Assembly: GCA_965231155.1 (NCBI GenBank)
Contig: OZ246418.1
Span: forward strand, 42,266-106,265
Source: an uncultured Candidatus Saccharibacteria bacterium
Lineage (GTDB): Bacteria; Patescibacteriota; Minisyncoccia; UBA6257; 2-01-FULL-56-20
Direction: 5' to 3'
DNA: 64,000 nt
The position numbers and the translations under genes are program-made. A model generated the notes under the pieces. It had not been told where the DNA came from. It ran no database searches and saw nothing but the letters and a program-made list of their open reading frames with translations. This document shows positions 6,376 to 59,784 of the stretch, one piece after another. Each line of letters opens with the position of its first letter. Position 1 is the stretch's first letter.

Positions 6376-6804
6376 CTATCCCCTGGCCTCGTCTAAGGCC
6401 TTATTGACCATCCGATCAGCAGCTTTATTCAGCTCTCGGGGAATGTGTTTGAACGTCACGCTCTTAAAGTCTAGTCGCAAGTTCCAGATCTGCATAAAAT
6501 AGGGCTGGAGTTTCTCATCTTCGATTTTATAAATTGCATTCATCTGCTTCACGATCAACTCACTATCCATTCTGACTTCAACATCTGTTTGTTTTGCTTT
6601 TGTTTTCCCAAGAAGTGCCTTGGCTTTCTTTAACGCGAAAACCAATGCCAAGTACTCAGCTTGGTTATTCGTCATAATTCCTAAGTACTCTCCGTATTCT
6701 TTTCCACCAACTACCGCGCCCAAAGCCGCTGGCCCAGGATTACCTCGCGATCCCCCATCGGTATAGATAAGAAATTTATTTTCTGTTGGAAAAAGTGAAC
6801 TCAT
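6376..6804 (-). CDS. rnhA: Ribonuclease HI
   Basis: FLIYTDGGSRGNPGPAALGAVV ... TNNQAEYLALVFALKKA: canonical RNase H catalytic D/E/D motifs. Confidence 0.85.
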   Translation of the reverse strand: MSSLFPTENKFLIYTDGGSRGNPGPAALGAVVGGKEYGEYLGIMTNNQAEYLALVFALKKAKALLGKTKAKQTDVEVRMDSELIVKQMNAIYKIEDEKLQPYFMQIWNLRLDFKSVTFKHIPRELNKAADRMVNKALDEARG

Positions 6805-7376
6805 TTGCCAATTAATCGTAAGAAAACCTGATATGTTGTCCGTGCATCATCAATCGCCCGGTGCGCTCGGCCACGATCAACACCAAAATAATTTGCTAAC
6901 TCTCGCAAAGAAAACCTCACTAACGACGGATCGTCCCGCAACTGCAACCAGGCCAACGCAAACGTATCTAGCGGTTTATAAAAATAGTTTCCTTCCAGGT
7001 CGTGATCCCAAAGTGCTTTTTCGAGATGAAGCATATCAACAGAAACATTGTGGCCAACAAGGATCGCGTCCTTGGTGTACCGCAGAAACTCTTCAAGCCC
7101 GGCCTTCATCTCTACTCCTTCCCGCTTCCACTCCTCCTCGTCGTAACCACTAATCTCTAAACCACTCGGATCAGCGTTCTCGATATGCTCTGGTTTAAGC
7201 TTAATGTCTCTCTCATTCAGAATCTCAAAACTACCGGCCTTGGCCTTAACAAGACCAATCTCGGTGATCTCGTGATCAAATCGAAGACCAGTAAACTCAC
7301 AATCAAAAAACACCAAATCGCGATCATGGATGAGGGGCTCGTATTCTGGCTGGATGATATCAGTTTCTTCTGGCAT
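6801..7376 (-). CDS. DEDDh 3'-5' exonuclease (DNA polymerase III epsilon/DnaQ-like)
   Basis: Exo I FFDCEFTGL, Exo II GHNVSVDMLHL, Exo III HRAIDDARTT motifs. Start set at MPEETD to avoid 100-nt overlap with the upstream paralog. Confidence 0.75.
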   Translation of the reverse strand: MPEETDIIQPEYEPLIHDRDLVFFDCEFTGLRFDHEITEIGLVKAKAGSFEILNERDIKLKPEHIENADPSGLEISGYDEEEWKREGVEMKAGLEEFLRYTKDAILVGHNVSVDMLHLEKALWDHDLEGNYFYKPLDTFALAWLQLRDDPSLVRFSLRELANYFGVDRGRAHRAIDDARTTYQVFLRLIGK

Positions 7377-9162: not shown

Positions 9163-10952
9163 GTAACTTCGCTATTATAGCATTGCTCACAGTAGATAAT
9201 CTCGGGGCGATCTGGCGCGTAAGAAGTCTGGAAAGTGTTCAGACATTGGGCATCTCCGTGAAAATGAGGCGAGGTATTCGCGAAGGCACCGTTTGAAGAC
9301 CAGGAGCCACTACACTGACACTGTCGTGAATAAAGCGCCAATGGATTTCTCCAGCTGATCCGGTCCACATGACGACAGTTAAAACAAAGTCGTGGCAGCG
9401 GTAGTTGCATCTGACGATAAAATGCGAGTTCTTCAGGCGTGATACGAAAAGCCGTAGTGCAGTTAGAACCACACATACCAGAGTGATTATTTATTTCATC
9501 GTGCATGCAATGAATAATCTCTTTCACTATCGAGTCATCCACCCCGGAAATAGTTTCAGGTAGGTCTTTTGATTCTTTCGTTATCTGATACTCTCTTTTT
9601 TTAGAAGCTTGCCAGCGATAGCCTTGTTCTTCGACTTCTTTTTGTGTGAGGGGAAAATATTCTTGCCCCTGGCTTTCGTTATATCCTATGGGATTTATAT
9701 CGAGCGGAAAAAACTCGCCATACTTATACGTTCTTCCTTTCGAATCGACGTAGGGCATCTCACTCATATGCTTGATAATTCTCGGCACAAGCTCTTCGTA
9801 TTCTTCTTTAGAATACTGCTTATTAAGAACGCAGTACTGCTTACTTTTTAAGCCAACAGAACCAAAGACGTTGCTCACACTTTTGCAGTCCATGATATAC
9901 TGGGAGTCTGTTGCCGTCTCACAGTTCACAGTAAAAAAAGATCGATGAAGACCAAGTCCCGAACAGGAAGTTTCATAAGCAAGCTCCGCATCAACTCCAG
10001 TTGATGTTATATCCATGCAGTCCTTGATAGGGTCAAAGATGATACTCTGGGAGTATGCGCAATTTTGAGCTTCGTTTGCAAAATAACAGTTCTTGAGCTC
10101 GGAGGAGTTATAAATGTAATCCCCCTTACACCCCGCATCCTTTACGCCATGTCGGAAACGAACCGGATTTTTTATCCAAAACTCTTCCGCTTGTTTTCGA
10201 GCTTGATGTACTCCCTCTCGAGATTTCAAGTCGAACTCCTCTAGCTTCTTAACATACCCTTCTTTTGAATAAGGCTGGTTGAAAATATAATAATTTTTAT
10301 TTCGAAGACCACTGCAACCAAAACAGTTAGAACAACCAACACAATCCTGACTCAGCCACACATCACTGCACGAGTTACAGTTTCGGGAATAGAAAGTCTT
10401 ATAGCATTGCGTAAGGTTGATAGAGTAGTAACAAAGCTCTGAATATTTGGTATTAATGGTATCAAAGCAGTTCTTTGCCTTCTGCAAAGTCACGTTATAG
10501 GCACTATCCTCACACTCACCTGAATCAAAACACATATACGAGTTTTTCATGTCTAATCCTTGACCATACTCGCTATTCACACTGTTCGTATTAAATACGC
10601 TCATCGTCGGAACTTTGAAGTAGAGCTCTTTAAACTGCGCAAAAAATGGTCGAGAAAAATCATAGTCAACGCCATATTCTAAAGAATCCCACGCATCACT
10701 GATCCAGTACTGCCGATCATAGACAGGCATCGGCGCGTCCTCGGGAATTAGTGAGAATATTTTTTTACCAGTGGCGTCACACACACGTTCATGCAATGTG
10801 CGCATATTCCGAAATGACATTCGTCGCATCGCGCGGCACCGCCAACACCAGGTCGGCGGTGGAACCTCAATTTTCTTATAGAAATCAAAATCGGCGGGTT
10901 CGATTACAAAATCTAATTTGCAATTCTGACAGCTGCGTGTTTCTAAGTTCAT
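9159..10952 (-). CDS. Cysteine-rich ~597-aa protein, paralog 2 of 3
   Basis: Same architecture as 7381-9162 (MNLETRSCQNCKLDFVIEPADFDFYKKIEVPPPTWCWRCR...). Shares a 4-nt ATGA start/stop overlap with paralog 1. Confidence 0.6.
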   Translation of the reverse strand: MNLETRSCQNCKLDFVIEPADFDFYKKIEVPPPTWCWRCRAMRRMSFRNMRTLHERVCDATGKKIFSLIPEDAPMPVYDRQYWISDAWDSLEYGVDYDFSRPFFAQFKELYFKVPTMSVFNTNSVNSEYGQGLDMKNSYMCFDSGECEDSAYNVTLQKAKNCFDTINTKYSELCYYSINLTQCYKTFYSRNCNSCSDVWLSQDCVGCSNCFGCSGLRNKNYYIFNQPYSKEGYVKKLEEFDLKSREGVHQARKQAEEFWIKNPVRFRHGVKDAGCKGDYIYNSSELKNCYFANEAQNCAYSQSIIFDPIKDCMDITSTGVDAELAYETSCSGLGLHRSFFTVNCETATDSQYIMDCKSVSNVFGSVGLKSKQYCVLNKQYSKEEYEELVPRIIKHMSEMPYVDSKGRTYKYGEFFPLDINPIGYNESQGQEYFPLTQKEVEEQGYRWQASKKREYQITKESKDLPETISGVDDSIVKEIIHCMHDEINNHSGMCGSNCTTAFRITPEELAFYRQMQLPLPRLCFNCRHVDRISWRNPLALYSRQCQCSGSWSSNGAFANTSPHFHGDAQCLNTFQTSYAPDRPEIIYCEQCYNSEVT

Positions 10953-11215
10953 AGAATTTGGAAATCTTTATAATGCTTATGCTCAGCATTTTCGACTTCA
11001 ATCTTCTCGACTCGCGCCTCTCGCGGGCCTTTCTTACACCAAGCAATAAACAAATCCAACTGATCATCATCTCCTTCAACTTCGGCCAAAACTGAACCGT
11101 CTGGCATATTCTTTACATAACCAAACACGCCAATAACTTCTGCCATCTTCTTCGTTGTGTCCCTAAAGAAAACATCCTGGACCTTGCCGTATACTTTAAT
11201 AACGAGATGGTTCAT
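10949..11215 (-). CDS. acyP: Acylphosphatase
   Basis: VKVYGKVQDVFFRDTTKK ... GYVKNMPDGSVLAEVEGDDD: acylphosphatase signatures (V-x-G-x-V-Q-G-V-x-F-R and G-x-V-x-N). Confidence 0.8.
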   Translation of the reverse strand: MNHLVIKVYGKVQDVFFRDTTKKMAEVIGVFGYVKNMPDGSVLAEVEGDDDQLDLFIAWCKKGPREARVEKIEVENAEHKHYKDFQIL

Positions 11216-11220
11216 AGCTC

Positions 11221-12993
11221 TTATACGATTTCGGCATTATAACACTGCTCGCAATACACTATCTCTGGGCGATCTGGGGTGTAGGTCGTTTCAAATTTAT
11301 TCAGGCATCGTCCACCGACATGAGAGGTGTGCTCTTTAGAATTCCTAAAAACTTTGCCATCACATACGCACTGACGACTACAAAGCTTGAATTTATTCCG
11401 CTCTCCAAGACGCTCGTAGTGGCGGCAATTGACGCATAGTTCAGGAATGGGGACACCAAGCTTCTTTAACAATTGAAGCTCTGGAGCGATTAGACGAAAT
11501 ACCTTGGTGCATTGATGATTACAAACTCCTTCATGTCGACACTGAATCAGTTCCTGAAGAATACCCTGGTCCACCTCTTGGATTGATGTAGGGATCTGTG
11601 AAAACTTCATCGTAAAAGTATTCGACTTATCCTTTGCCTCACGCCATATATATCCTCTCTTAACCGCCTCCTCCTTATCTAACGGAAAATATTCTTGAGC
11701 GATGGTTTCGTTGTAGGCAAAAAAAGACATCTCCATAGGGAAAAATTCACCGTAACGATATTCTTTCTTGTGTGAATCAACATATGGCATAGCCATCATA
11801 TGTTCTTTGATCTTTGGCAGAATAGCTTCATATTCTTCTTTGGAATACTGCTTATTCAGAATGCAGTACTGTTTATTCCGAATACCTACGGACCCAAAAC
11901 AATGCGGAGAATTTCGCACAAAATAACAATACTGAGTATCGTAGCTTTCCCAAACATTACCGCAAAAAGCGACATTATGAACCTTAAGTCCGGTATCCAT
12001 AATGTCGTAACTTGATTCAACGAGACCTACGGCGTAAGCGTCATAGAGATCTCTCATCTCAGTCACACCATAGACTAGAAAGCGCGAGTTCTCAGCAGGA
12101 CCTTCCACATCGAAACAATCCTTACAGTCTTTCACGCCATTCAGGTAATCTCCAGTAGAGTTGACGGCTCGACGAGAGTTAGAGAACTTTCTAGGCCGAG
12201 TAAGTAATAATTCTCGGAAACGCTTCTCCACGATAGCCCGACCTGTTTTAGTGTCTAGACGAAGTTCTTTAACTTTTTCCTTGTATTCTTCAGGAGAAAA
12301 CTGCTGATTGAAAATTGAATGTTTGGCGTTTCTTAACCCTACACAACCAATACAATCCTGAGAATTACGGCAGTCATAGCAATATTTTGAATTGATACAT
12401 CCCTCAGAAAGAATGAGGTGATCACTCTCGTAGCAAGCCTCCGAATCAACCAGTTGGTAACAGTGTTCATTTTTCCTAGAACCAAGCATATCAAAACAAT
12501 CTTTGTTTTCGATTGAGTGGTAGAGATACGCCGTGTCTTCGTTCATGTCACTCGCAAAATTCAGATAGCAGTTTTTTGATTCATAGGTAAAGTTGCAATA
12601 ATCGCTTTGAACATCGCTAATGTTAATGAGTGAGATAAGCGGGACTGAGTTTAGAAGCTCTTTCCATTGCTCAAAAAAAGGCCTCGAGAAATCATACTCA
12701 CGCCCATACTGCATAGGATCCCACTCGTCGCTCCACCAGTATTTTGTATCGTATACAGGAATAGCGAGCTCTGGCGGATACATAGTAATAATGGATTCCC
12801 CATGACCCGGAGCATCACATTTTCGCTTATAGAGATTCCTCTCATTCCTCCAGGTTAAACGGCGCATCAAACGACAGTCCGGACAAAAAGTCGGTGGTGG
12901 CACCTGCATTTTTTTGTAGAAATCAAAATCGACTGACTCTATCGTAAATTCTTGTTTACAGTTCTGACAGTTTTTTACTTCTTTTTCGGCCAT
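11221..12993 (-). CDS. Cysteine-rich ~590-aa protein, paralog 3 of 3
   Basis: MAEKEVKNCQNCKQEFTIESVDFDFYKKMQVPPPTFCPDCR... Colinear with paralogs 1 and 2 throughout. Confidence 0.6.
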   Translation of the reverse strand: MAEKEVKNCQNCKQEFTIESVDFDFYKKMQVPPPTFCPDCRLMRRLTWRNERNLYKRKCDAPGHGESIITMYPPELAIPVYDTKYWWSDEWDPMQYGREYDFSRPFFEQWKELLNSVPLISLINISDVQSDYCNFTYESKNCYLNFASDMNEDTAYLYHSIENKDCFDMLGSRKNEHCYQLVDSEACYESDHLILSEGCINSKYCYDCRNSQDCIGCVGLRNAKHSIFNQQFSPEEYKEKVKELRLDTKTGRAIVEKRFRELLLTRPRKFSNSRRAVNSTGDYLNGVKDCKDCFDVEGPAENSRFLVYGVTEMRDLYDAYAVGLVESSYDIMDTGLKVHNVAFCGNVWESYDTQYCYFVRNSPHCFGSVGIRNKQYCILNKQYSKEEYEAILPKIKEHMMAMPYVDSHKKEYRYGEFFPMEMSFFAYNETIAQEYFPLDKEEAVKRGYIWREAKDKSNTFTMKFSQIPTSIQEVDQGILQELIQCRHEGVCNHQCTKVFRLIAPELQLLKKLGVPIPELCVNCRHYERLGERNKFKLCSRQCVCDGKVFRNSKEHTSHVGGRCLNKFETTYTPDRPEIVYCEQCYNAEIV

Positions 12994-14123: not shown

Positions 14124-15389
14124 ATGGAAAGAAAGCGGATAGTCATTCTGGGAGGGGGGTTCGGCGGTCTCACGACCGCTTTTTCCATATCGAAAGAACT
14201 CCACAGCCTCCGACTCCTCGACTCATATGAACTCGTCCTTATTGATCGGAACGAACATCACACCTTTATTCCCCTCTTATATGAGGTGGCAACTACGGCC
14301 AAAGAGACAGCAAATCTTATTCACCTTCATGACCTGGTCACCCACAACCTGACTGAACTAACCACACACTCATCAATCCGTTTCATTCAGGATGAGGTAC
14401 AAAGAATCTCTCCCAAAGAGGGCCTCATCACCCTGAAGAAAAACGGCACTATGAAAGCTGAATACATTGTCCTGGCCTTAGGCTCAGAAGTGAACTACTT
14501 CAATATTCCTGGACTCAAAGAGTATTCCCTGACACTGAAATCATTTTTCGACGCCATCCATCTTCGAGACGCTATCGTCAATCTGGCCGAAAACAAATCA
14601 GTCATTGAAATAGTGGTGGGTGGGGCAGGACCGACAGGAGTTGAGCTGGCTGGAGAACTCACTAACTGGTGTTCACGCTCACTTGGCTGCCAGCTCCATG
14701 TCACACTCATTGAAGCCCAGCCGAATATTCTTTTCGGCTTTCCTTCCAATATTGCTGGCCGAGCAGAAAGACGCCTCCGCGATCTTGGGGTACATATAAA
14801 AACTCAGGCAAAAATTCTTCAACTATCTACTAAGGAAGTGGAACTGGGAAATGGTGAAAAAATACCGTTTGATCTTTTCGTGTGGAGTGGTGGCGTAAAA
14901 ACTCCCGACCTCCTCCTCAACCTCCCTTTAAAAACTGAGACTCGTGGTAGAATCGAAACCCACGAGACTATGGCCTGTCTTCCGCAAACCCCAGATCTAG
15001 AGCTAGGCTGTATGGTTTACGGTATTGGCGACAATGTCTGTTCTTATGATCCTCGCACCAATAAACCAGTTCCGGCGGTTGCTCCGGCAGCTATCGCACA
15101 AGCAGGCGTGGCCGCGCACAACATTATGCAGGATATTAGAAAAGCAGAAGGTCTGCCCCAAACTATTCGCCGAACGTATATTCCAGCCGACTATCCTTAC
15201 GTCATTCCAGTCGGCGGTAAGTACGTTATTGCAAAAATTGGTCCTATTGTCCTTGCCGGAATCTTCGGCTGGATATTTAAAGGACTTGTCGAGTTCTATT
15301 ATCTCACTTCGATTATGCCGAAATCAAAAGCCTTTCGTGTCTGGATTAAAGGACTCCTCGTTTTTATGAAAAACGACAAGCTAGGATAG
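14124..15389 (+). CDS. ndh: Type II NADH dehydrogenase-like FAD/NAD(P)-binding oxidoreductase
   Basis: N-terminal RIVILGGGFGGL dinucleotide-binding motif and second GGAGPTGVELAGEL Rossmann motif. Length and layout match NDH-2. Confidence 0.7.
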   Translation: MERKRIVILGGGFGGLTTAFSISKELHSLRLLDSYELVLIDRNEHHTFIPLLYEVATTAKETANLIHLHDLVTHNLTELTTHSSIRFIQDEVQRISPKEGLITLKKNGTMKAEYIVLALGSEVNYFNIPGLKEYSLTLKSFFDAIHLRDAIVNLAENKSVIEIVVGGAGPTGVELAGELTNWCSRSLGCQLHVTLIEAQPNILFGFPSNIAGRAERRLRDLGVHIKTQAKILQLSTKEVELGNGEKIPFDLFVWSGGVKTPDLLLNLPLKTETRGRIETHETMACLPQTPDLELGCMVYGIGDNVCSYDPRTNKPVPAVAPAAIAQAGVAAHNIMQDIRKAEGLPQTIRRTYIPADYPYVIPVGGKYVIAKIGPIVLAGIFGWIFKGLVEFYYLTSIMPKSKAFRVWIKGLLVFMKNDKLG

Positions 15390-34195: not shown

Positions 34196-34266
34196 TGCCG
34201 GGTCGTCTAATGGTAGGACAACGGACTCTGAATCCGTTTATCTTGGTTCGAATCCAGGCCCGGCAG
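34196..34266 (+). tRNA. tRNA-Gln (anticodon CTG)
   Basis: Manual cloverleaf: acceptor TGCCGGG/CCCGGCA, D-arm GTCT-AATGGTA-GGAC, anticodon arm ACGGA-CTCTGAA-TCCGT (anticodon CTG), T-arm CTTGG-TTCGAAT-CCAGG, discriminator G. Confidence 0.8.
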
Positions 34267-34360
34267 CAGTCTAGTTTAGTATCGATGGACCAGGAGCTGT
34301 AATAAATGACACCCAATAACCTGGACGGGTTATTAAGAAAACTATACTCTTGTTCTCATA

Positions 34361-38340: not shown

Positions 38341-39627
38341 CTATTCTAGGGTTAACTTCTTGTCTATTAAGATCAACTTACTTCTAAATGATTGCATCAA
38401 CTCTCGCTTCTCTTCTAAGATTCCATCTTTAAGTAGGTATTTCGCATACGATCGCAAGTCAGTTTTGTTTTGCTCTAACCTTTCTTTCTCGTCTAGGCCA
38501 AGCACCTTATTTCGAAAGTGACCGAACCGCTCCATCTCTTTTTCCAACTTCTGTCTTATGCCAATAGAATTGAGATCAATTTTATCCATAAGCTCCAAGA
38601 GTTGGGCAATTAAGACTTTTTCTTCAATATATCCGCCCTTGCAATTTCTATCTTTGAACCGAGTACAGCCATAATAGATATATTTTGCTATTGTTCCATC
38701 TTTAAGATTCTTATACTTCTCCTCTGCCGATATCCCCGAACCACAAAGCCCGCAGGACATAAGACGAGTGAATGCAAACTCTCCATGCTTTGTCCTGACT
38801 TTCCGCTGAAGCTGCAATTGCTTCTGTGTTGAGTCAAATAGTTCTTTTGTAATAATCGGAATGTGTTTTCCTTGAAACCATCTTCCACTCCCCCGAGGAT
38901 ATTCGTATCTTCCGTAGTAGAAAGTATTGTTAAAAAGAATGTACACATTACTCAACGTAAATGGTTTCCCATTTCTTGATACAAATTTTATTTCACGAAG
39001 CCATTCGTAAACTTTTCTGCCGCTCCAACCCGTTAAAGCAACTTTCTCGAACATTTCTTTTACAATAGGAGCGCGCTCAGGATCAATGAAAATATGGCCC
39101 TTCTCGTCGACATTTTTTGAATTCAGATAGCCAGTAGGCGCTACCGATGGCCAAAGCCCCATCTCGCACTTGGTTTTCAATCCCCTTTTTACATTTATGC
39201 TCTTATTGTCATTCTCTAGTTTTGCCTGGGAGCCAAGAATCATGAGGAGAAATTTCTCATTAGGATTATCAGTGAACCTCTGACTGTAAGTCTTGATCTC
39301 AACTAGTTTCTTTTGATCAAAGAGGTCAACAATTGCTCCGAGATCGCCTGCGTTGCGACTCAGTCGATCTGGATGCCAGACTAGGATACCATTGAACTTA
39401 TCCTCCCGAATGTCGTTAAGAAGCTTGTTGAATACTGGACGTTGTCCACAGTCTTTAGCTGAGTGTGATTCTCTGTAAATATCAGTAACGTTCAGATTGT
39501 CTCGCTGCGCCACCAACAACATCTCCTTTGTTTGAGAGTCTATCGAAAGAGCCTGCTTCTCCTCTGCTTCGCTAGATTTCCTCGCATAGAGGCAGTAACG
39601 GACCTCCTGAGCTATTTCTGTATCCAT
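38341..39627 (-). CDS. Large serine recombinase (resolvase N-domain + recombinase domain + zinc ribbon)
   Basis: YCLYARKSSEAEEKQALSIDSQ catalytic Ser region, then recombinase domain and C-terminal CGLCG...C..C zinc ribbon. 428 aa. Confidence 0.85.
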   Translation of the reverse strand: MDTEIAQEVRYCLYARKSSEAEEKQALSIDSQTKEMLLVAQRDNLNVTDIYRESHSAKDCGQRPVFNKLLNDIREDKFNGILVWHPDRLSRNAGDLGAIVDLFDQKKLVEIKTYSQRFTDNPNEKFLLMILGSQAKLENDNKSINVKRGLKTKCEMGLWPSVAPTGYLNSKNVDEKGHIFIDPERAPIVKEMFEKVALTGWSGRKVYEWLREIKFVSRNGKPFTLSNVYILFNNTFYYGRYEYPRGSGRWFQGKHIPIITKELFDSTQKQLQLQRKVRTKHGEFAFTRLMSCGLCGSGISAEEKYKNLKDGTIAKYIYYGCTRFKDRNCKGGYIEEKVLIAQLLELMDKIDLNSIGIRQKLEKEMERFGHFRNKVLGLDEKERLEQNKTDLRSYAKYLLKDGILEEKRELMQSFRSKLILIDKKLTLE

Positions 39628-41339: not shown

Positions 41340-41545
41340 GGCAGAGACCTAAACCCTCGGAGCAATCCGGCGGCATGGTCTACGAAGTCCCTTGGAAGAC
41401 ACTGAACCCCGCGTTCAGCGACTCTTCCAAGGGCCATACTGGGAAACTGGTATGGGGTCGTAAGACCTAGCTGATGCGGGGTTTAGTGTTTCTCCACCCC
41501 GCAAGACATAAACCACCTCTGTCGGGGTGAATACTATTTATTAAT
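41340..41545. ncRNA. Candidate structured non-coding RNA (nested hairpins, two GNRA tetraloops), strand undetermined
   Basis: Perfect 11-bp stem CCCTTGGAAGA...TCTTCCAAGGG enclosing inner 6-bp stem CTGAAC/GTTCAG (41389-41433); CCATACTGG-GAAA-CTGGTATGG (41434-41456); GGTC-GTAA-GACC; GCGGGGT...ACCCCGC. No ORF of at least 60 aa in a 370-bp gap between divergent genes. Confidence 0.3.
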
Positions 41546-53299: not shown

Positions 53300-53569
53300 T
53301 TATTTCTTCTTTGATCGTTTATAGACGGTCATAATCTCCTTCATAGCCTGTGCCTCCTTACCACTCTTCATCTGCTCAACCACATGAGTCGTGAGGTGAT
53401 TTTCTAATAAAAGATCTTCGACACTCGATAAGGCCTCTTTGATCGCCGAAGACTGAGTGATGATGTCTATGCAATATTTCTCCTCATCGACCATGCGCTC
53501 CAATCCCCGTACCTGTCCCTCGATCCGATGCAACCGAGAAGTTAATTTATTTTTAATGTCTTTTCTCAT
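53300..53569 (-). CDS. csoR: CsoR/RcnR-family metal-sensing repressor
   Basis: RLHRIEGQVRGLERMVDEEKYCIDIITQSSAIKEA: CsoR signature with Cys (C-x-D-I) and the His/Cys ligand set. Confidence 0.8.
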   Translation of the reverse strand: MRKDIKNKLTSRLHRIEGQVRGLERMVDEEKYCIDIITQSSAIKEALSSVEDLLLENHLTTHVVEQMKSGKEAQAMKEIMTVYKRSKKK

Positions 53570-53574
53570 AACCC

Positions 53575-53599
53575 CATTATACCCCCCTAGGGTATAATG
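53575..53599. promoter_or_regulatory. 25-bp palindrome CATTATACCCCCCTAGGGTATAATG: CsoR-box-like operator (ATACCC-N-GGGTAT) with symmetric -10 TATAAT hexamers on both strands (divergent promoter)
   Basis: Perfect 10-bp arms around a CCCTAGGG core, seen directly. Sits 6 nt upstream of the csoR start and about 180 nt upstream of the first cassette gene on the + strand. Confidence 0.5.
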
Positions 53600-53616
53600 T
53601 CAACATCCTGTTAAAA

Positions 53617-53756
53617 CTGTCTCATTTGTCTCATTTAGCCCTAGACCGAGACGGGTCAGTTATTACCCTATTCTGACCCCCAAAGAACCCTTATACTGAT
53701 TGAAAGTTCCTGGTACTAGACCGAGGAACACAGCCACCTTGAGATAGGTTCCTCGG
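53617..53756 (+). repeat. Leader repeat copy 1 (modules W gtctcatttgtctcattt, X gaccgagacgggtcag, Z tatactgattgaaagttcctggtactagaccgaggaacacag...ccaccttgagataggtt) upstream of gene 53777
   Basis: Roughly 140 nt, highly similar to 59288-59470 upstream of unrelated gene 59515. Ends in hairpin CCTCGG-gtc-CGAGG that pairs with the GAGGAG RBS. Confidence 0.5.
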
Positions 53757-53776
53757 GTCCGAGGAGCATTAAAGAT

Positions 53777-54439
53777 ATGTTTGAATGGCTAAAAGATAAA
53801 ACAATCGGAAAGTTCAGGCGCTGGAAGTCTCGACTATTTCTACGTATTATCGGAGAACTACATAAAGAACGCATGCGCGAACGCTTAAAAGACGTCCCCG
53901 CAGAACTGAAAGAGTATCATGCCAGAGAGACCATAATGAATGGAAATAGCACCGCACTGCATAATCTTTATAGAAAGGCCAAAGATAGCAAAAAGTTTCA
54001 GGAGGCATTTTTGTATTTTTTCTATGAGTTTGAAATAAATCTTAAGCATATGATCATGTCCGAGATGATGGTTGCAAACAGCATGGAGGCACTCAAACGT
54101 GACGAGAATAATCATTTCCCCATATATTCGGAAGATGAGGTATTAAAAATTCAAAAAATTGGACATATTTCCACTCTGATAGAAAAATTTTCCTCCGTTC
54201 ATGGTGATGAGATTGAAGATAGCTTAAAGGCCATCAACGACGCAAGAAATTTCATCATTCACAACATGCTAAAGGAGGAAATGAACGAAGGGCAGATTGA
54301 AAAATCATTTGAATACTTCTTCGTAGCCACCAATGGTCACATCAATAAAGCTTATAGATTTTTTGATAAAACGCTCGAAGAAAGACCCGAAAAAATACTG
54401 GCTACAGTGAAAAAGATTGCAGTAGAGAAGATACGCTAG
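53777..54439 (+). CDS. Hypothetical alpha-helical protein with HEPN-type R-N-x3-H motif
   Basis: C-terminal KAINDARNFIIHNML (RNxxxH). Mostly helical composition. Cassette 1 of the array. Confidence 0.4.
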   Translation: MFEWLKDKTIGKFRRWKSRLFLRIIGELHKERMRERLKDVPAELKEYHARETIMNGNSTALHNLYRKAKDSKKFQEAFLYFFYEFEINLKHMIMSEMMVANSMEALKRDENNHFPIYSEDEVLKIQKIGHISTLIEKFSSVHGDEIEDSLKAINDARNFIIHNMLKEEMNEGQIEKSFEYFFVATNGHINKAYRFFDKTLEERPEKILATVKKIAVEKIR

Positions 54440-54463
54440 AATTCCGTCCGAGGAGCATCAGAA

Positions 54464-54823
54464 ATGGAAGATTCAATATCATTGCAACTCGCAAAACAGT
54501 ATCTCGGAAAAGAGGTTGAGGTGACTATGGACCGACCGCTTGGAACTAAACATCCCAAGCATGGCTTTATATATGAAGCGAACTACGGTTTTATTGAAGG
54601 AGTAGAAGCTCCTGACGGAGAAGATCTGGACGCCTACTACCTGGGAGTGCAAACACCTCTTCAACAAGCAAAAGGAGTTTGTATTGCAATAGCCCATCGC
54701 AGAGACAATGACGACGACAAACTGATTGTCGTTCCCAAAGGAACTAAATTAACAGATGAGCAGATTATGCTTGCAATCCATTTCCAAGAGCAGTGGTTTG
54801 ATACAGGAATCGTTAGAAAATGA
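54464..54823 (+). CDS. Small protein with degenerate inorganic-pyrophosphatase-like acidic motif
   Basis: APDGEDLDAYY resembles family I PPase D-x-D-x-x-D signature in degenerate form. 119 aa. Confidence 0.3.
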   Translation: MEDSISLQLAKQYLGKEVEVTMDRPLGTKHPKHGFIYEANYGFIEGVEAPDGEDLDAYYLGVQTPLQQAKGVCIAIAHRRDNDDDKLIVVPKGTKLTDEQIMLAIHFQEQWFDTGIVRK

Positions 54824-54868
54824 CCCGTCCGAGGAGGGTCAAAAGGTAAGATAAAGAAACTTAAGAAA

Positions 54869-54914
54869 AGCCTCTGGTGGTCTCACTTTTTAAATATCCG
54901 AGACCGAGGAGGCC
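54869..54914 (+). repeat. Y-module hairpin copy 1 (CCTCTGGTGGTCTC-actttttaaatatcc-GAGACCGAGGAGG) pairing RBS with upstream CCTC
   Basis: One of three near-identical copies (also at about 55605-55650 and 56735-56773), each 10-20 nt upstream of a different start codon. Confidence 0.5.
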
Positions 54915-54922
54915 AGACGGCC

Positions 54923-55558
54923 ATGGGCCTTGAACAACGTAATAACGGAAGCGATATACTTAAGCTAATGGAACCAGAAATTAAACTTGTAGTCGAAGAA
55001 TCATTAACAAAAGTAAAGCGCATTTTCAACGTGGAAGATGTTTCAGCTCAAGTCGAAGAAGATCCCTCCCAGGTGATTCCTGAAACCGGCGCAGGCGGCT
55101 CCACTCCCGACTCACATACCATCTGCGTCTATTACGACTCCAACAATAAAAATCTTAGGAAAAATTTTCGGGAGGAAATCAAGAGCACGGTAACGCATGA
55201 ATTCCACCATGCAATCAGGAATAGGACCTACAACTGGAAGGAAGATACACTGCTTGGCGCGATAATCAGCGAAGGACTTGCCGATCACTTTGATATAGAA
55301 GTAAACAGTGGAAAACCAAAACCTTGGTCTGTTGCCCTAACTGATACTGAGCTAGAAAGAGTTGAAGAAATTGCTACCCCTGAATTGAATAGTCGCGAAT
55401 ACAACCACGCGGATTGGTTCTTCGGTTCGAAAAAAAGAAATATTCCCAGATGGGCAGGGTATGCGATGGGTTTTAAACTTGTGGGCGAATACCTGAAAAA
55501 GACCGGCAAGAAAGCTTCTGCGTTAGTTGCCGAACCTGCGAGATCTTTCTTTGACTAG
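54923..55558 (+). CDS. Putative zincin-like metallopeptidase (HExxH)
   Basis: THEFHHAIRN HExxH motif with downstream Glu/Asp-rich segment. Roughly DUF2268-like arrangement (inference). Confidence 0.35.
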   Translation: MGLEQRNNGSDILKLMEPEIKLVVEESLTKVKRIFNVEDVSAQVEEDPSQVIPETGAGGSTPDSHTICVYYDSNNKNLRKNFREEIKSTVTHEFHHAIRNRTYNWKEDTLLGAIISEGLADHFDIEVNSGKPKPWSVALTDTELERVEEIATPELNSREYNHADWFFGSKKRNIPRWAGYAMGFKLVGEYLKKTGKKASALVAEPARSFFD

Positions 55559-55604
55559 TGCTCGAGATGGATTGGAACGGTAGCATAAAGAAACCTCAGA
55601 AAAA

Positions 55605-55650
55605 CCTCTGGTGGTCTCACTTTTAAAATATCCGAGATCGAGGAGGCCAG
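55605..55650 (+). repeat. Y-module hairpin copy 2
   Basis: cctctggtggtctcacttttaaaatatccgagatcgaggaggccag; followed by an X-like gagaccgagacggatca segment. Confidence 0.5.
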
Positions 55651-55727
55651 CACGAGTCAGCGCGGTATCGTATGAGACCGAGACGGATCATATTTTGCTA
55701 ATTCTTGAAAAAGATTAGAATGGGAGC

Positions 55728-56156
55728 ATGTCTCAGGATTTGCCACAAAAAGAATTGATAATCGCCGTAGTGGAAAAAGACAGCGCTTTATTAATGCGAA
55801 AAAAGCCAGCTGGATCTCCTCCGTATGTAGAAACCTGGTATTCGCTGGGATGCGATCGAATTCCCGGCCAGGATGATCCAACCACTATAAAGAATTATTT
55901 GAAATCAGAAGTTGGCATCGACGTTGAAGTTGATCCTAAATCGATTCCCTTTGGAACTGAAATTAAAGAAGATCACGATGGCATTACCAAGAATTTTATC
56001 TACGTTAACCTCCTTTGTCATTATCTCGGCGGCACACCCAAGATACCCAAAGGCGCTGAAAAAATTGAATGGCTACCAAAAAATAGTTTGGGATCATTTG
56101 ATATCGTACCACCCTCAATAAATCTTTTTAAATCTCTTGGGTATCTAAATTCTTAA
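55728..56156 (+). CDS. Hypothetical protein, weak NUDIX-like layout
   Basis: ELIIAVVEKDSALLMRKK...G(x5)...SEVGI weakly resembles a Nudix fold start. Low confidence. Confidence 0.25.
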   Translation: MSQDLPQKELIIAVVEKDSALLMRKKPAGSPPYVETWYSLGCDRIPGQDDPTTIKNYLKSEVGIDVEVDPKSIPFGTEIKEDHDGITKNFIYVNLLCHYLGGTPKIPKGAEKIEWLPKNSLGSFDIVPPSINLFKSLGYLNS

Positions 56157-56157
56157 A

Positions 56158-56688
56158 ATGCGCAAAAGAAATCTTGGGAAGCTTGAACAATACGATTATA
56201 TCGATGACGAATTTATTGGAGAAACCAGCCCTGATTATATCGAAGCTATCGGCCTATTTGTGCTTGAATTTAGCGCTCTGGAACATGAAATAAATTTACG
56301 AATTGCAGATCAAATTAACGATAGAGCACACTTTCAAGGATATCAGGTCATTGAACTTTTATCCTCAAAAGATAAGATTGATTTATTTTCGAGATGGGTT
56401 GGCGCTTATATGGTCATGGGCAATAGTAAAAAGAAAACTCGATTTAATCGCCTCGTTCAAAAGCTTCGAGAATTAAATGCATTTCGAAATAAAGTTCTGC
56501 ATGCCAATTGGATGTCTGCGGCTAAGGATGGCACAGTTAGAACTCGTATCGTCATCAACGAGGGAGAAGGCGCTGTTCGCTTCGAGAGAACAAAAATCAC
56601 TCCAACATTAATTAATAAAAAATCGGAAGAATGCTCCAGGGCGAGAGATGAGCTCGATGAGATTATGGAGGGAGCTTATAACAGCTAG
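56158..56688 (+). CDS. Hypothetical protein with HEPN-type R-N-x3-H motif
   Basis: LRELNAFRNKVLHANWM (RNxxxH), very similar in local context to the motif in gene 53777 (N-[DA]-[AF]-R-N-x-[IV]-[IL]-H-[NA]-N). Start codon overlaps previous stop (TAAAATG). Confidence 0.4.
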   Translation: MRKRNLGKLEQYDYIDDEFIGETSPDYIEAIGLFVLEFSALEHEINLRIADQINDRAHFQGYQVIELLSSKDKIDLFSRWVGAYMVMGNSKKKTRFNRLVQKLRELNAFRNKVLHANWMSAAKDGTVRTRIVINEGEGAVRFERTKITPTLINKKSEECSRARDELDEIMEGAYNS

Positions 56689-56734
56689 ACCGAGACGGGT
56701 CAGTTACTCCCCTACTACGACCCTCAGAAAACCC

Positions 56735-56773
56735 TTTGGTGGTCTCACTTTTTAAATATCCGAGACCGAGGAG
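56735..56773 (+). repeat. Y-module hairpin copy 3, preceded by X-module copy (56686-56736)
   Basis: tagaccgagacgggtcagttactcccc...aaccctttggtggtctcactttttaaatatccgagaccgaggag. Confidence 0.5.
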
Positions 56774-56877
56774 TCCCATTATAAAAAACGGCGTATTCAG
56801 GTTTTGAATGACTAGACTTAATGTCATTTATATCTCATAATTTCCCCAGCTTTTCCAAAACCTTAGGGAGGACACTC

Positions 56878-58188
56878 ATGGCACAAGAAAACACTGCGGT
56901 TCAAGACGCTGGAGCTTCCCCAATGGAAGCGGATCTTCGAAACATTCCCATTGATCTCATCGATCCAGATCCTCGTCAACCCCGCACCGACTTCGACGAA
57001 GAAGCCCTAAATGCGCTGGCCGAGAACATAGAGGCAGTAGGGGGCTTACTCCAAACCGTTGTAGTTCGTCCATCACCTACTGATCCGGGTCGCTTCATGC
57101 TGATCGGTGGCGAACGGCGATACCGTGCTTCGAAAAAAGCCGGGTCAAGCACTCTTCCTTGCATCGTCCGGCAGGGCGATAGGATTCCCTTCGTCATGTC
57201 TATGGTTGAGAACATGCTCCGGGCAAGTCTCAACCCCATCGAAGAGGCGCGCGCCTTTAGACGATGCCACGACGAGTATGGGATGTCGTATCACGAGATT
57301 GACCGAACTTTCAAATTCAAACGAAAGAAATCGGAAAACGTGGTGCGCCTTCTGGAACTGCCGGAAGAAATTCAGCAAATGGTGGAGAACGGCACATTGC
57401 CGCCAAGCTATGCGCTGGGTTTACATCAGTACGCTGAAACCCGAGACGTCGTCGCCATGGCCTACGCCCTTGCCGATGGACGTGATCCCGGGGTTGTCTT
57501 GCCAAAACGGAAGACAAAATATGTTAAAGGTGAGCCGAAACCAACGGAGTTTCGAGAGTATTTCCTGTTAGCCAAACAGAGTGATCGTGTGAGAAGACTC
57601 GCCGATGCACTTCTGGCACACGACACAGGGATACAGCGTCGGGCGTGGATGAAGAACTCACGCACGAGCAGAACGAACCTTCAACTCAATCTTCGTGCCA
57701 TGGCAATTGCCTTCGGGCAAATGACTGCTCGACTCGAAGATCTCGAGAAACCATCAACAGTAACGTTCTCGCCTGCGTCAGAAGCCAAGTCGAGCCCTCT
57801 TACTCGGCCGACAACTCCGCCCAAGAAACCGACGCAGGAAAAATGGTTACCTCTCCCGGACGAAAGCACCTTCGAAAAAATCGCTGGAGTAATTCGATTG
57901 GTCTCCTTTGATCGCAGGGGAGGTAGACTTGCCTACCTGAGCGAAGAACGTCTCAAGCGGAAGGGATGCTCACCGGAACTCCTCCTCGAAGCCTTACGAG
58001 TTTTTCGAGATCAGTGGAATCGAGAACCGGCCACAGGGAATACTCAGGTAGAACGAGAATTCCTGGGGTTTCTCAAGGGAACTCGCGAAAATTCCGGGTG
58101 TAACCAGTTTTTCAGTTTTATCGGAAAACTCAGAGATCTAGATACCTCCGAAGATCCAGTTCCTCTGAGCCCCCTATCAGACGACTAA
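56878..58188 (+). CDS. ParB/Srx-domain protein with long Pro/Thr/Arg-rich C-terminal extension (GC-rich gene)
   Basis: LIDPDPRQPR...LLQTVVVRP...LIGGERRYRASKKAG: ParB N-terminal domain with GERRxRA motif. RBS AGGGAGG 7 nt upstream of ATG at 56878. Codon usage distinctly GC-rich. Confidence 0.65.
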   Translation: MAQENTAVQDAGASPMEADLRNIPIDLIDPDPRQPRTDFDEEALNALAENIEAVGGLLQTVVVRPSPTDPGRFMLIGGERRYRASKKAGSSTLPCIVRQGDRIPFVMSMVENMLRASLNPIEEARAFRRCHDEYGMSYHEIDRTFKFKRKKSENVVRLLELPEEIQQMVENGTLPPSYALGLHQYAETRDVVAMAYALADGRDPGVVLPKRKTKYVKGEPKPTEFREYFLLAKQSDRVRRLADALLAHDTGIQRRAWMKNSRTSRTNLQLNLRAMAIAFGQMTARLEDLEKPSTVTFSPASEAKSSPLTRPTTPPKKPTQEKWLPLPDESTFEKIAGVIRLVSFDRRGGRLAYLSEERLKRKGCSPELLLEALRVFRDQWNREPATGNTQVEREFLGFLKGTRENSGCNQFFSFIGKLRDLDTSEDPVPLSPLSDD

Positions 58189-58212
58189 AACCCTCATCGT
58201 GAGGGTTTTTTA
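58188..58212. terminator. Rho-independent terminator shared by convergent ParB-like and sigma54-activator genes
   Basis: AAAACCCTCA-tcg-TGAGGGTTTT followed by TTATT. Begins at the ParB-like stop codon. Confidence 0.8.
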
Positions 58213-58240
58213 TTACTGAAAATAAAAATCCGTCATAAGG

Positions 58241-59206
58241 TTATGACGGAAGTTGAACTGGTGAACCGCTACTTTGATACTCACTCAAACGGTTATAAAG
58301 AGTCTTCAAAGAAATTCCCAGGCTTGCTGATGCCGCTTGCTTATTGCCTTTATGGTATTCAAGCGCTGCCAAGATGTGTTCTCTCTCGATATCAACCAGC
58401 GGGCGCGGGGTATGAGATGGTGCAAGTTGATTCTTAACCGGAGAGCCTCCTCGAACACGATCCGGAATATGCTCAAGACCAACTTCCCTTTCAGAAAGTA
58501 CGGTTGCCCGCTCCATAACGTTCAGCAGCTCCCGAACATTGCCGGGCCAGCTGTAACGCAGGAGATGAGTCAAGGCATCCTTGGCGATAGTCTTCCGATA
58601 GATCTCGAGTCTGTTCCTGATCAAGACTTCAATATCTTCTGGACGATCGCGCAACGCAGGCATGGTCAGATCGAGAACGCTCAGACGATAAAAGAGATCT
58701 TCTCGGAACGTTTGTTCTCGGACCATTTTCCACAGATCCCGATTTGTTGCTGCAATAATACGAACATCGGTCTTCTGCGCCTGATCGCTGCCCAAGGCGA
58801 AAATCTCACCATTATCTAGGAAGCGAAGTAGCTTTGATTGAAGCGACAAGGACAACTCCCCTATCTCTTCCAACAAAACCGTACCCCCATTAGCAGTCAT
58901 CAATACTCCTGGCCTATTTTCTAACGCTCCGGTGAACGACCCTCGAGTATGACCAAAAGCCATGGAATGCCAGAGATCTTCTTGGTGGATATATGTTCCA
59001 TCAACCACGGCCAGTGATTTGTGCTCTTGCCCTCGAGGACTTTTTTCGTGGATAAACTGAGCCAGTGCGGACTTGCCTGTGCCCGTTTCTCCGCCAATCA
59101 GTATGACACTACCAGTTTGAGCAAAACGTTCTGCTCGTGCCAAAGCTTCCTGCATGAGACGACTCGCCGCAACCCATTTCATATGAACTCCCCTCTCATC
59201 GAACAA
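58241..59206 (-). CDS. Sigma-54-dependent transcriptional activator, AAA+ core plus Fis-type HTH, no sensory/receiver domain (PspF-like)
   Basis: GETGTGKSALAQ Walker A, GSFTGAL (GAFTGA equivalent), GTVLLEEIGEL Walker B, RIIAATN, FREDLFYRL, WPGNVREL, C-terminal ASLGISLKTLYNRL HTH. Probable true start at internal MKWVAASR (59182). Confidence 0.85.
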   Translation of the reverse strand: MFDERGVHMKWVAASRLMQEALARAERFAQTGSVILIGGETGTGKSALAQFIHEKSPRGQEHKSLAVVDGTYIHQEDLWHSMAFGHTRGSFTGALENRPGVLMTANGGTVLLEEIGELSLSLQSKLLRFLDNGEIFALGSDQAQKTDVRIIAATNRDLWKMVREQTFREDLFYRLSVLDLTMPALRDRPEDIEVLIRNRLEIYRKTIAKDALTHLLRYSWPGNVRELLNVMERATVLSEREVGLEHIPDRVRGGSPVKNQLAPSHTPRPLVDIEREHILAALEYHKGNKQAASASLGISLKTLYNRLSEYQSSGSPVQLPS

Positions 59207-59287
59207 CTGCCTCTATCTAAGAGGAAATACTTTCTCCTGTCAAACACAAAGAGTCACTCAGTGTCGATATCGTTGCAAGTCTCAAAA

Positions 59288-59470
59288 ACCGTCTCGTTTG
59301 TCTCATTTTTACCCGACCAAGGTGGGTCAGCAACTCCCCTGTTCCTACCCAAAAAACCCTTACACTGATTGAAAGTTCCCAGTACTAGACCAAGGAACAC
59401 AGTAACTGAGCGAGAGCGAAGGAGTACTGAGGTTAGTAGGCCGAATGTGCCACCTTGAGATAGGTTTCCA
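59288..59470 (+). repeat. Leader repeat copy 2 (W-X-Z modules with a ~45-nt insertion) upstream of gene 59515
   Basis: gtctcgtttgtctcattttt...gggtcag...aacccttacactgattgaaagttcccagtactagaccaaggaacacag...ccaccttgagataggtt; compare 53617-53756. Confidence 0.5.
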
Positions 59471-59514
59471 GTGCTTCTATTCGGGAACGGGCTCTTCTAA
59501 ACTATAATGGAAGA

Positions 59515-59784
59515 ATGAAAGAAACTGCCAAATCATTCCCTGATGCAGAAATGAACCCCCGTCAAAAAGATTCTCAGGGGTTAGACTTCTGGGCTACCAG
59601 CCTACTCGAAAACAACCTTATTAGTAAAAGGGAATATGACGAGTTCATCGAAAAAAATAATTCGAAGGAAAAAATGATGGAAGAGAGAAGGTTGCCCCAG
59701 CTCAAACACTATGGAGAATTTACTTCGACCGAACAAATAAGAAAAAAGATTAGACCGCAAGAGGAAGAAAAATTTATTATATGA
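59515..59784 (+). CDS. Hypothetical small charged protein
   Basis: 89-aa Lys/Glu-rich ORF behind leader repeat copy 2. Confidence 0.3.
   Translation: MKETAKSFPDAEMNPRQKDSQGLDFWATSLLENNLISKREYDEFIEKNNSKEKMMEERRLPQLKHYGEFTSTEQIRKKIRPQEEEKFII

Follow-up and report, generated by a model that had tools for sequence, protein, structure and literature searches.

Mosaic hairpin repeats at the gene junctions of a small accessory-gene array in Patescibacteria

Background

Intergenic repeats composed of short imperfect hairpins and linker blocks, joined in recombinant mosaics, are represented by BIME/REP in Enterobacteria and by NIME/dRS3 in Neisseria, where they lie just after stop codons in co-directional gene clusters and are co-oriented with transcription. 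In integron arrays with attC repeats, such as the VCRs of Vibrio, similar hairpin repeats of about 95 nt separate small, unrelated accessory or defence-like genes on one strand. In these respects both descriptions apply to a locus of about 6 kbp in the window (the whole stretch of 64,000 nucleotides analysed here). The locus belongs to Patescibacteria, which have tiny genomes and in which the turnover of accessory genes is little known; no comparable repeat family in this group is described in the literature searchable here.

Results and discussion

The repeated sequences of this locus, X and Y, are real and lie far above the level of chance. Y (42 nt) exists in three copies, all on the plus strand, at 54871–54912, 55605–55646 and 56733–56774, with zero, two and two mismatches, respectively. 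Shuffled sequences gave no match to it, and the three copies to which an earlier note on this DNA had drawn attention are confirmed. X (GACCGAGACGGGTCAG) has exact copies at 53644 and 56688 and recurs with two mismatches at 55676 and with three at 59315, and the core GWCCGAGRMG is found eight times (0.8 expected), on the plus strand only and entirely within 3.1 kbp (53644–56773). The earlier note had taken Y and a partner X for separate modules; they are instead the right and left parts of one unit of about 95 nt, present in five copies, three with a Y core (U1, U2 and U3) and two with a Z core (V1 and V2), plus fragments. Searching with an HMM of the five units returned those five copies only (68 kbp scanned; E values of 1e-20 to 1e-26), and the other 62 kbp examined contain no unit. 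In a scan of genome collections Y gave only chance matches, to unrelated high-GC genomes; metagenome and viral scans gave no match to it, and blastn against plasmids and phages returned nothing relevant. All Logan contigs are identical to the window. The repeats split short-read assemblies of the same strain, in which contigs break at Y1 and Y3, and they mislead gene callers, as in the extension of g3 described below.

The left arm of the unit is constant, consisting of X, a hairpin (hairpin 1, GGGTCAG/CTGACCC) and a linker; the middle is a 26-nt core that comes in two alternative forms, Y and Z, between the same flanks; and the right arm is the X core again. The X core, 10–16 nt long, has the same orientation at both ends, the two ends of a unit form direct repeats (AGACCGAGAC... 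/ ...AGACCGAGGAG), and the predicted folds are two separate local hairpins. Flanking copies of AGACCGAG can be read as an 8-bp duplication, the ends that they enclose not being inverted repeats, and inspection revealed no evident terminal inverted repeats at the ends of the units or of W, an insert described below. X contains the dyad GACC-N6-GGTC, with palindromic arms of just 4–5 bp, and its copies in U1, U2 and U3 have degenerated to about 60% identity. U3 has a V-type left half (85% identity to V1) and a Y core (96% identity to Y1) and is therefore a recombinant. V2 is 85–91% identical to V1, the sole length difference being the 47-nt W.

The array, all on the plus strand except where stated, begins with two tandem copies of GTCTCATTT (53619–53636) just upstream of V1 (53641–53735); the equivalent sequence at 59291–59308 precedes V2. 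V1 contains the X core (53644–53659), hairpin 1 (53653–53659 and 53673–53679), the linker CAAAGAACCCTT, the Z-core hairpin (53706–53729) and the right arm AGACCGAGGAAC. A T block (GCCACCTTGAGATAGGTT, 53733–53750), with an identical copy at 59449–59466 and near-identical ones in the related loci L039 and L040, is followed by a CCTCGG/CCGAGG hairpin (within 53733–53776) that pairs the Shine-Dalgarno sequence of g1. The g1 product (53777–54439, ATG at 53777; 220 amino acids) has no family match, only an RNxxxH motif. Six nucleotides past the g1 stop, serving as the Shine-Dalgarno region of g2, lies a lone X-type core, GTCCGAGGAGCATCAG (54446–54461), 13 nt of which are identical to the Shine-Dalgarno region of g1 (53757–53769). 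Next come g2 (54464–54823, ATG at 54464; 119 amino acids, a weak match to inorganic pyrophosphatase) and U1 (54824–54917), in which a degenerate X (54827–54842), three nucleotides past the g2 stop, leads through the linker to Y. A DUF2268 gene, g3 (54923–55558), encodes 211 amino acids as called, or 196 from ATG 54968. It is followed by U2 (55559–55651), whose degenerate X (55560–55575) begins one nucleotide past the g3 stop and is again joined by the linker to Y, and then by a lone extra X (GACCGAGACGGATCAT, 55676–55691), between U2 and the promoter-like TAGAAT (55716–55721) of g4. The genes g4 (142 amino acids) and g5 (176 amino acids) form a two-gene module (55728–56688), conserved as a pair in L061. 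HEPN assignments for g1 and g5 were rejected, having an Rx4H motif alone and no support from Pfam, PADLOC, NCBIfam, BLAST or Foldseek. In U3 (56686–56778), X (56688–56703) overlaps the g5 stop codon TAG and precedes a V-type hairpin 1 and linker and then Y. A promoter, TAGACT-17-CATAAT (56813–56841; TGGACT-17-CATAAT in L038), serves the ParB-like gene (56878–58188), which is convergent with that of a receiver-less sigma-54 activator on the minus strand (58241–59206), each having its own canonical terminator. V2 (59312–59402), with X at 59315–59330 and Z at 59375–59398, is followed directly by W (59403–59449).

The units and X cores lie on the coding strand and start 0–6 nt past stop codons, X being directly 3' of the real stop codons of g1, g2, g3 and g5. 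The placement of X after stop codons in the earlier note stands for g2 and g5 but fails at 53644, in a divergent spacer where no plus-strand ORF ends, and at 55676, likewise not behind a stop; the degenerate X at 55560, directly past the g3 stop, had escaped it, as had V2, which lay outside the region it covered. Within the 6-kbp array, the modular order that it proposed (stop, X, Y or Z, next gene) holds in essence. The gene that follows U1, U2, U3 or V2 has a promoter of its own, downstream of the unit. Y1 is the only one of the three Y copies that adjoins a start codon; Y2 is succeeded by another X, and Y3 is upstream of the ParB promoter and hence of the ParB transcription start. The 3' arm of Y1 places GGAGG 10 nt ahead of ATG 54923, and g3 as called carries a 15-codon N-terminal extension because this arm resembles a Shine-Dalgarno sequence. 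Close homologues of g3 all start at ATG 54968 (M16), 45 nt downstream of ATG 54923, and a promoter-like TGAACA-18-TATACT (54931–54960) has its -10 box 7 nt before ATG 54968. Judged from these sequences, the real start is probably ATG 54968, behind its own -10 box, rather than ATG 54923. Short minus-strand ORFs overlap Y1 and Y3 (54883–55029 and 56663–56827), and short ORFs across Y were rejected as an explanation, since stop codons occur in several frames and Y2 has no counterpart of these minus-strand ORFs.

W belongs to a family of structured, dispersed elements that is also present in other CPR contigs. It is a hairpin with covariation: 96.6% of cells are paired, four pairs are changed on both sides, and the observed score was reached by none of 500 shuffles. 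It forms tandem arrays of two copies in L038 and three in L042, lies directly 3' of tRNA-Gln in L039 and L040, and in many cases borders the tRNA-Gln 3' end or X. In L044 it is located in frame inside miaA, where it adds 16 residues relative to PDB 2qgn.

Other species contain unit-like sequences whose blocks follow the same order (L040, 2140–2250; L043, 805–870). The ParB-like/activator pair is kept in L038 and L042, flanked there too by X-like spacers, and in L038 GTCACTTT-like motifs occur ahead of the X-like motifs; the g1–g5 array is missing from the syntenic, X-containing pre-ParB spacer of L038. In L052 a g3 homologue lies next to tRNA-Gln(TTG), and direct copies of the 3' end of this tRNA, together with a shared 29-nt block, stand on either side of the homologue; in L055–L059 the g5 homologues adjoin OLD-family nucleases. 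No units accompany the g3 and g5 homologues of more distant genomes.

The repeats could in principle act at the level of RNA, DNA recombination or transcription, and the evidence for these possibilities is uneven. A cis-acting RNA, either a Shine-Dalgarno-sequestering attenuator or a 3'-end stabiliser, processing site or insulator, perhaps with a common factor, is in our judgement unlikely. The coding-strand position immediately behind stop codons would suit it, Y1 and the V1 leader hairpin fully pair a Shine-Dalgarno sequence, the two one-sided changes in Y each replace C by U opposite G and so keep G.U pairs on the plus strand only, and an unrelated gene in L039 likewise has a T block and then a Shine-Dalgarno hairpin leader ahead of it. 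However, a start codon follows only one of the three Y copies and is probably not the native one, given where the homologues begin; Y3 is upstream of a promoter; the Z hairpin of V2 is degraded by non-compensatory changes; Y, with only three sequences, exhibits no covariation; and the repeats have no U-tract, though canonical terminators are nearby. X, Y, Z and W matched no Rfam covariance model at gathering or E<=5 thresholds; the LOOT RNA at 41346 is unrelated to the repeats. The reading of the Y 3' arm as a ribosome-binding site in the earlier note survives for Y1 with the long g3 only, not for Y2 or Y3, and sequestration of that site as a common function falls with it, applying to one copy of three and to a start that homologues place 45 nt downstream. 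An RNA thermometer, also suggested there, is ruled out, because the stem does not melt between 10 and 60 °C: in folding runs the Shine-Dalgarno sequence was >97% paired throughout, with unpaired probabilities of 0.00–0.02 for Y1 and 0.01–0.03 for the g1 leader. An intrinsic terminator was likewise rejected, Y having a 15-nt loop and no T-run and the terminator scan flagging those of the ParB-like and activator genes only, as was a type III toxin–antitoxin or CRISPR/TIGR-like array, the copies being neither tandem nor regularly spaced and having no matching effector.

Recombination-related sites, in a wider sense, would fit both the mosaic structure and the related loci. The attC-like sites of the earlier note are a different matter and were rejected, since core boxes, an end-to-end palindrome and an integrase are missing: a regex search for R''(RYYYAAC)...R'(GTTRRRY) pairs found none on either strand of 53500–59600, none of the seven spacers contains either box on its own, and the unit ends are direct, not inverted. 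A Pfam scan of about 60 window ORFs (49 of the 74 ORFs of at least 110 amino acids, plus shorter ones) detected no tyrosine recombinase or IntI and no RAYT (IS200/IS605-like Y1 transposase). There is no transposase or recombinase beside the array, and the window yielded just one recombinase, of the large serine type (38341–39627), 14 kbp away. These absences also weigh on a broader proposal, rather improbable in our view, that the 16-nt X core, whose origin may be a tRNA-Gln 3' end, is the crossover of active site-specific recombination analogous to integron gene capture, which would insert cassettes with their own promoters ahead of the ParB-like gene. In its favour, a co-oriented X core stands at every cassette boundary, the array is, relative to L038, an insertion exactly at the X-containing spacer, tRNA-Gln 3'-end copies bracket the g3 homologue in L052, and X-like motifs end in CAGCAAC, as does the tRNA-Gln(TTG) 3' flank in L039 and L043. 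Against it, the palindromic arms of X are very short and are not kept in L038, X is degenerate among the U units, and no excised or alternative arrangement or cassette presence/absence polymorphism was seen among the Logan contigs. An origin of X from the T-loop/acceptor end of a tRNA is speculation, suggestive by eye on a very short match. We give little credence to the fullest form of this proposal, in which an undescribed Patescibacteria system, using tRNA-Gln-3'-end-like sites and some recombinase, stacks promoter-bearing accessory or defence cassettes upstream of the ParB-like/sigma-54 activator pair, and W is another structured mini-element of this clade that moves independently. It is very unlikely, finally, that X and the upstream GTCTCATTT repeats are operators where the ParB/KorB-like protein or the sigma-54 activator binds and coordinates the expression of all cassettes. 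X-containing spacers do flank this gene pair in two species, in both upstream of plus-strand genes, and X carries a dyad and is present twice per spacer. The dyad is, however, short and missing from the L038 versions; ParB-type HTH dimers normally bind palindromes of 13–16 bp; the copies have a single orientation, and many are at gene 3' ends, not near promoters; and the array contains no sigma-54 promoter or UAS (no match to TGGCAC-N5-TTGC).

The explanation that we prefer, with about an even chance of being correct, is that the repeats are DNA-level mosaic junction units of the BIME/REP or NIME kind, specific to a small Patescibacteria clade, and not a switch of ribosome binding. A unit would fill the spacer from the stop of one accessory gene or gene pair to the promoter or ribosome-binding site of the next. 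Its blocks (X core, hairpin 1, linker, Y or Z core, second X core and optional W) would be swapped and spread through recombination and mini-element insertion, and the co-oriented X cores at both ends could provide the homology for gain, loss and reshuffling of one- or two-gene cassettes. In readthrough transcripts the units would fold into stable hairpins within the 3' UTR of the upstream gene, and the pairing of the Shine-Dalgarno-like GAGGAG would be a by-product, mattering at most for g1 and the long g3. If junction repeats of a single clade do surround self-promoted cassettes, they would point to a repeat-mediated route of cassette exchange, an idea supported by W, which covaries, varies in copy number and sits in frame inside a gene. 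Against the mosaic-junction explanation, all copies are co-oriented with transcription and lie right after stops, which an RNA-level role would fit equally well, and it must also accommodate the lack of an adjacent recombinase, transposase or RAYT, the lack of cassette polymorphism, and distant g3 and g5 homologues without units.

Comparison with known systems

The likeness of the array to integrons ends with its gene content and repeat size: the spacers contain no R''/L''/L'/R' boxes or GTTRRRY, there is no end-to-end palindromy and no IntI, and several cassettes have their own promoters. Shine-Dalgarno-sequestering leaders and RNA thermometers (ROSE, fourU) share with Y1 and the g1 leader an anti-Shine-Dalgarno CCUC(U) that pairs GGAGG; here, in contrast, stem stability is far too high (-20 to -26 kcal/mol), pairing persists even at 60 °C, and two of the three Y copies have no downstream start codon. 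The tRNA-Gln(TTG) 3'-end copies around the L052 g3 homologue, the CAGCAAC tail of X-like motifs and the position of W 3' of tRNA-Gln in L039 and L040 recall the att duplications of tRNA-integrated islands, but the window contains no tRNA-Gln(TTG), X resembles the tRNA end only weakly and by eye, and the segments are of 0.4–1.2 kbp and have no integrase. W alone resembles Rickettsia palindromic elements (RPE) and MITE-like mini-elements, being a dispersed hairpin of about 48 nt, variable in copy number and in frame in a conserved gene (miaA, L044); it is much shorter than RPE and has no recognised terminal inverted repeats or target duplications. With BIME/REP and NIME/dRS3 the units share extragenic imperfect palindromes set in mosaics with linkers, as in hairpin 1, the Y/Z alternation and U3. 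They differ from both in having no RAYT or transposase in sight and no visible dispersal, forming one 6-kbp cluster within the sequence examined, in which each unit is bounded by direct copies of its 10–16-nt core.

Repeat units and their mosaic structure

The element Y has three copies, as an earlier note had claimed; they lie on the + strand at 54871, 55605 and 56733 (0, 2 and 2 mismatches), whereas no match was found across 100 shuffles. The element X (GACCGAGACGGGTCAG) has exact copies at 53644 and 56688 and near-copies at 55676 (2 mismatches) and 59315 (3 mismatches). The core GWCCGAGRMG occurs eight times between 53644 and 56773, always on the + strand, compared with 0.8 expected in the whole window. 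Because Y is absent from the shuffles and the core so exceeds its expectation, the repeats are real, and the feature is genuine and non-random.

The earlier note treated X and Y as separate modules, but repeat finding and alignment established that X makes up the left part and Y the right part of a single unit of ~95 nt. The unit starts with the X core, often 0–6 nt past a stop codon (g1, g2, g3 and g5 among the small accessory genes g1–g5), continues with hairpin 1 (GGGTCAG-N13-CTGACCC) and a linker ending AGAA(A)CCCTT, then has a 26-nt core in two alternatives, Y (TGGTGGTCTCACTTTTTAAATATCCG) or Z (ATACTGATTGAAAGTTCCTGGTACT), and closes with a right arm, AGACCGAGGAG, which is the X core again in direct orientation. 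Three units are of the X-linker-Y type (U1, 54824–54917; U2, 55559–55651; U3, 56686–56778) and two of the X-linker-Z type (V1, 53641–53735; V2, 59312–59402). V2 lies beyond the range first described; the earlier structural description was largely right but incomplete in coordinates and scope. A lone X (55676) and a lone X-type core (54446) lie outside any unit. A five-unit HMM recovered just these five units (E 1e-20 to 1e-26), with no further copies in the 64-kb window and a 4.2-kb extension from a Logan contig.

In U3, the left half is of the V type (85% identity to V1) and the core is Y (96% identity to Y1), and therefore the blocks of the unit recombine. The repeat shared by V1 and V2 extends upstream into two tandem copies of GTCTCATTT and downstream into the block GCCACCTTGAGATAGGTT; the sole length difference between them is a precise 47-nt insert at V2 (59403–59449), the element W. 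Logan contigs assembled from several short-read runs on the same strain (L001–L004, L036 and L037; window 43777–68188) are all exact matches to the window, with no polymorphism observed, and merely break at Y1 (ending at 54904 or starting at 54882) and Y3 (starting at 56744); the repeats fragment short-read assemblies.

Array genes and translation

The window comes from the chromosome of a Patescibacteria (CPR) bacterium and contains housekeeping genes; homologues of g3 are named from Patescibacteria, Parcubacteria and similar, and an identical entry for the ParB-like protein is recorded on an 808-kb NCBI contig. The array consists of g1, g2 (pyrophosphatase-like), g3 (DUF2268), the two-gene module g4-g5, the ParB-like gene and, convergent to the latter, a sigma-54 activator without a receiver domain. 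Canonical terminators exist in the array only at the ParB/activator junction. The ParB-like protein (436 aa) and the activator are encoded convergently, a pairing conserved between two CPR species (window 56878–59206; relative contig L038 9477–11852). The activator has AAA+ and Fis HTH domains, its top PADLOC match is RtcR/PspF-like, and no sigma-54 promoter was found near the pair.

Y had been proposed as a switch occluding the ribosome-binding site, a reading that is not supported. Of the three copies only Y1 precedes a start codon (ATG 54923, preceded by GGAGG at a distance of 10 nt), and that start is doubtful: all 16 closest homologues of g3 have 192–203 aa, versus 211 aa called in the window, and in all five read at the DNA level the start is the residue matching M16 (ATG 54968). 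A -10-like hexamer lies 7 nt ahead of the M16 ATG in the window (TATACT) and in L052 and L053 (TATAAT), the nearest two loci with DNA sequence, and a promoter match, TGAACA-18-TATACT, is located at 54931–54960. These homologue starts, hexamers and promoter match indicate that g3 is most likely transcribed from a promoter of its own into a near-leaderless mRNA, with Y1 upstream of the promoter, and that the called start is probably too long by 15 codons. Downstream of Y2 come a further X and then TAGAAT (g4 promoter-like); downstream of Y3 comes the ParB promoter, TAGACT-17-CATAAT, which is kept in L038. At several accessory genes the ATG has no Shine-Dalgarno sequence and is preceded, at only 6–7 nt, by a -10-like hexamer (TATACT, TAGAAT or TATAAT; window 54955–54970, 55716–55730 and 59503–59517; L052 3491; L053 602), which suggests near-leaderless transcripts.

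An RNA thermometer, also suggested earlier, is not supported by folding, as the Shine-Dalgarno sequence stays paired (probability >0.97) from 10 to 60 C in both Y1 and the g1 leader hairpin; such stems, if acting at all, would be constitutive blocks. The Y stem, in its three copies only, has no compensatory changes, but two one-sided C-to-U changes keeping G.U pairs and three broken cells. In V2 the Z hairpin is degraded by non-compensatory changes.

The csoR promoter is a perfect sigma-70 consensus (TTGACA-16-TATAAT, minus strand, 53576–53603) overlapping the palindrome TATACCCCCTAGGGTATA, likely the CsoR operator; a copper cluster (P-type ATPase, DUF305, DUF411) lies upstream. Elsewhere in the window, three tandem paralogous ORFs of ~590 aa each (7381–12993; 60–77% DNA identity in blocks), without a Pfam match, adjoin RNase H-like and exonuclease genes, and GmrSD and ThiF-family genes are found at the window start.

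Proposed recombination sites and the W element

The attC reading raised earlier is not supported: neither strand of any spacer has a RYYYAAC or GTTRRRY box, the unit ends are direct rather than inverted repeats, and no tyrosine recombinase, transposase or RAYT was found among ~60 window ORFs scanned (49 of the 74 listed ORFs of at least 110 aa, plus shorter ones). No site-specific recombinase linked to the array was found; the sole one among these ORFs is a large serine recombinase (38341–39627) in an island after tRNA-Gln(CTG) (34196–34267). This island also includes LOOT RNA (RF03000; 41346–41468, 77.5 bits), a TPR-GreAB-C-PIN protein and a ParB-methyltransferase fusion. Neither W nor any module of the unit matched Rfam.

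A W pattern search matched six metagenome contigs. W (~48 nt) is about 90% identical between CPR species that share only 59% identity in ParB, and often abuts the 3' end of tRNA-Gln(TTG): it follows this tRNA directly in L039/L040 (L039 5317–5371), and a partial tRNA 3' end in L043 (226–277). Three or four copies each occur in L041 (including 1774–1831, 11562–11615 and 14722–14774) and L044 (including 1030–1073, 5331–5380 and 6736–6780), and one L044 copy is in frame within miaA, with 16 more residues than PDB 2qgn. Thirteen copies support a bipartite 9-bp hairpin (GUACU/A-GUGC, tandem GA/GA loop, 4-bp stem, AGNA loop) that covaries strongly: pairing holds in 96.6% of cells, both partners have changed in four pairs, the observed score was reached in 0 of 500 shuffles, and slid controls are near zero.

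Related loci

The ParB-like protein has a full-length relative only in L038 (59% identity) and in L042, of the same species. Their order is tRNA-Gln(TTG), W, DUF218, X-like sequence, then tandem W of variable copy number (two in L038, 8453–8488 and 9265–9365 being its W regions; three in L042, 423–570), promoter, ParB, activator, X-like sequence and patatin. Thus, X-containing spacers flank the conserved pair in both species, and at the ParB-side spacer the window has the g1–g5 array in addition. Unit-like sequences of equal block order follow stop codons in L040 (2140–2250) and L043 (805–870); none were found around more distant g3 and g5 homologues. In L052, a g3 homologue (72% identity) adjoins tRNA-Gln(TTG) and has on either side a direct copy of the last 17 nt of the tRNA (100% and 76% identical); ahead of both copies stands a common 29-nt block containing a small hairpin. 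This lone DUF2268 gene forms a 0.8-kb 'cassette' within att-like repeats (3174–4217), and a perfect 19-nt inverted repeat after the tRNA takes in its 3' end. A different intergenic hairpin repeat, 53 nt long and species-specific, occurs in two copies (1395–1447 and 7076–7128; 87% identity) on L047, a related CPR contig of 788 kb, and such small repeats may be common in the clade.

Interpretation

The reading best supported is a clade-specific family of mosaic repeats at gene junctions, working at the level of DNA: the blocks are exchangeable, with U3 recombinant and W precisely inserted; the units lie between a stop codon and the next promoter; one relative lacks the array at the syntenic spacer; and in another, tRNA-end repeats bracket a gene similarly. 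We infer this rather than observe it, since no recombinase is linked and no polymorphism was observed. In transcripts the units would probably form hairpins within 3' untranslated regions, and in the DNA they would probably offer patches of homology at which cassettes are gained and lost. They may instead act at the RNA level, with which their strict co-orientation with transcription agrees; X may also be an operator, or part of an active X-based capture system.

Mosaic intergenic repeats are a known kind of element; none have been described for this phylum in the literature that could be searched. In position and mosaicism, the junction units would behave like the BIME/REP elements of E. coli and the NIME of Neisseria.
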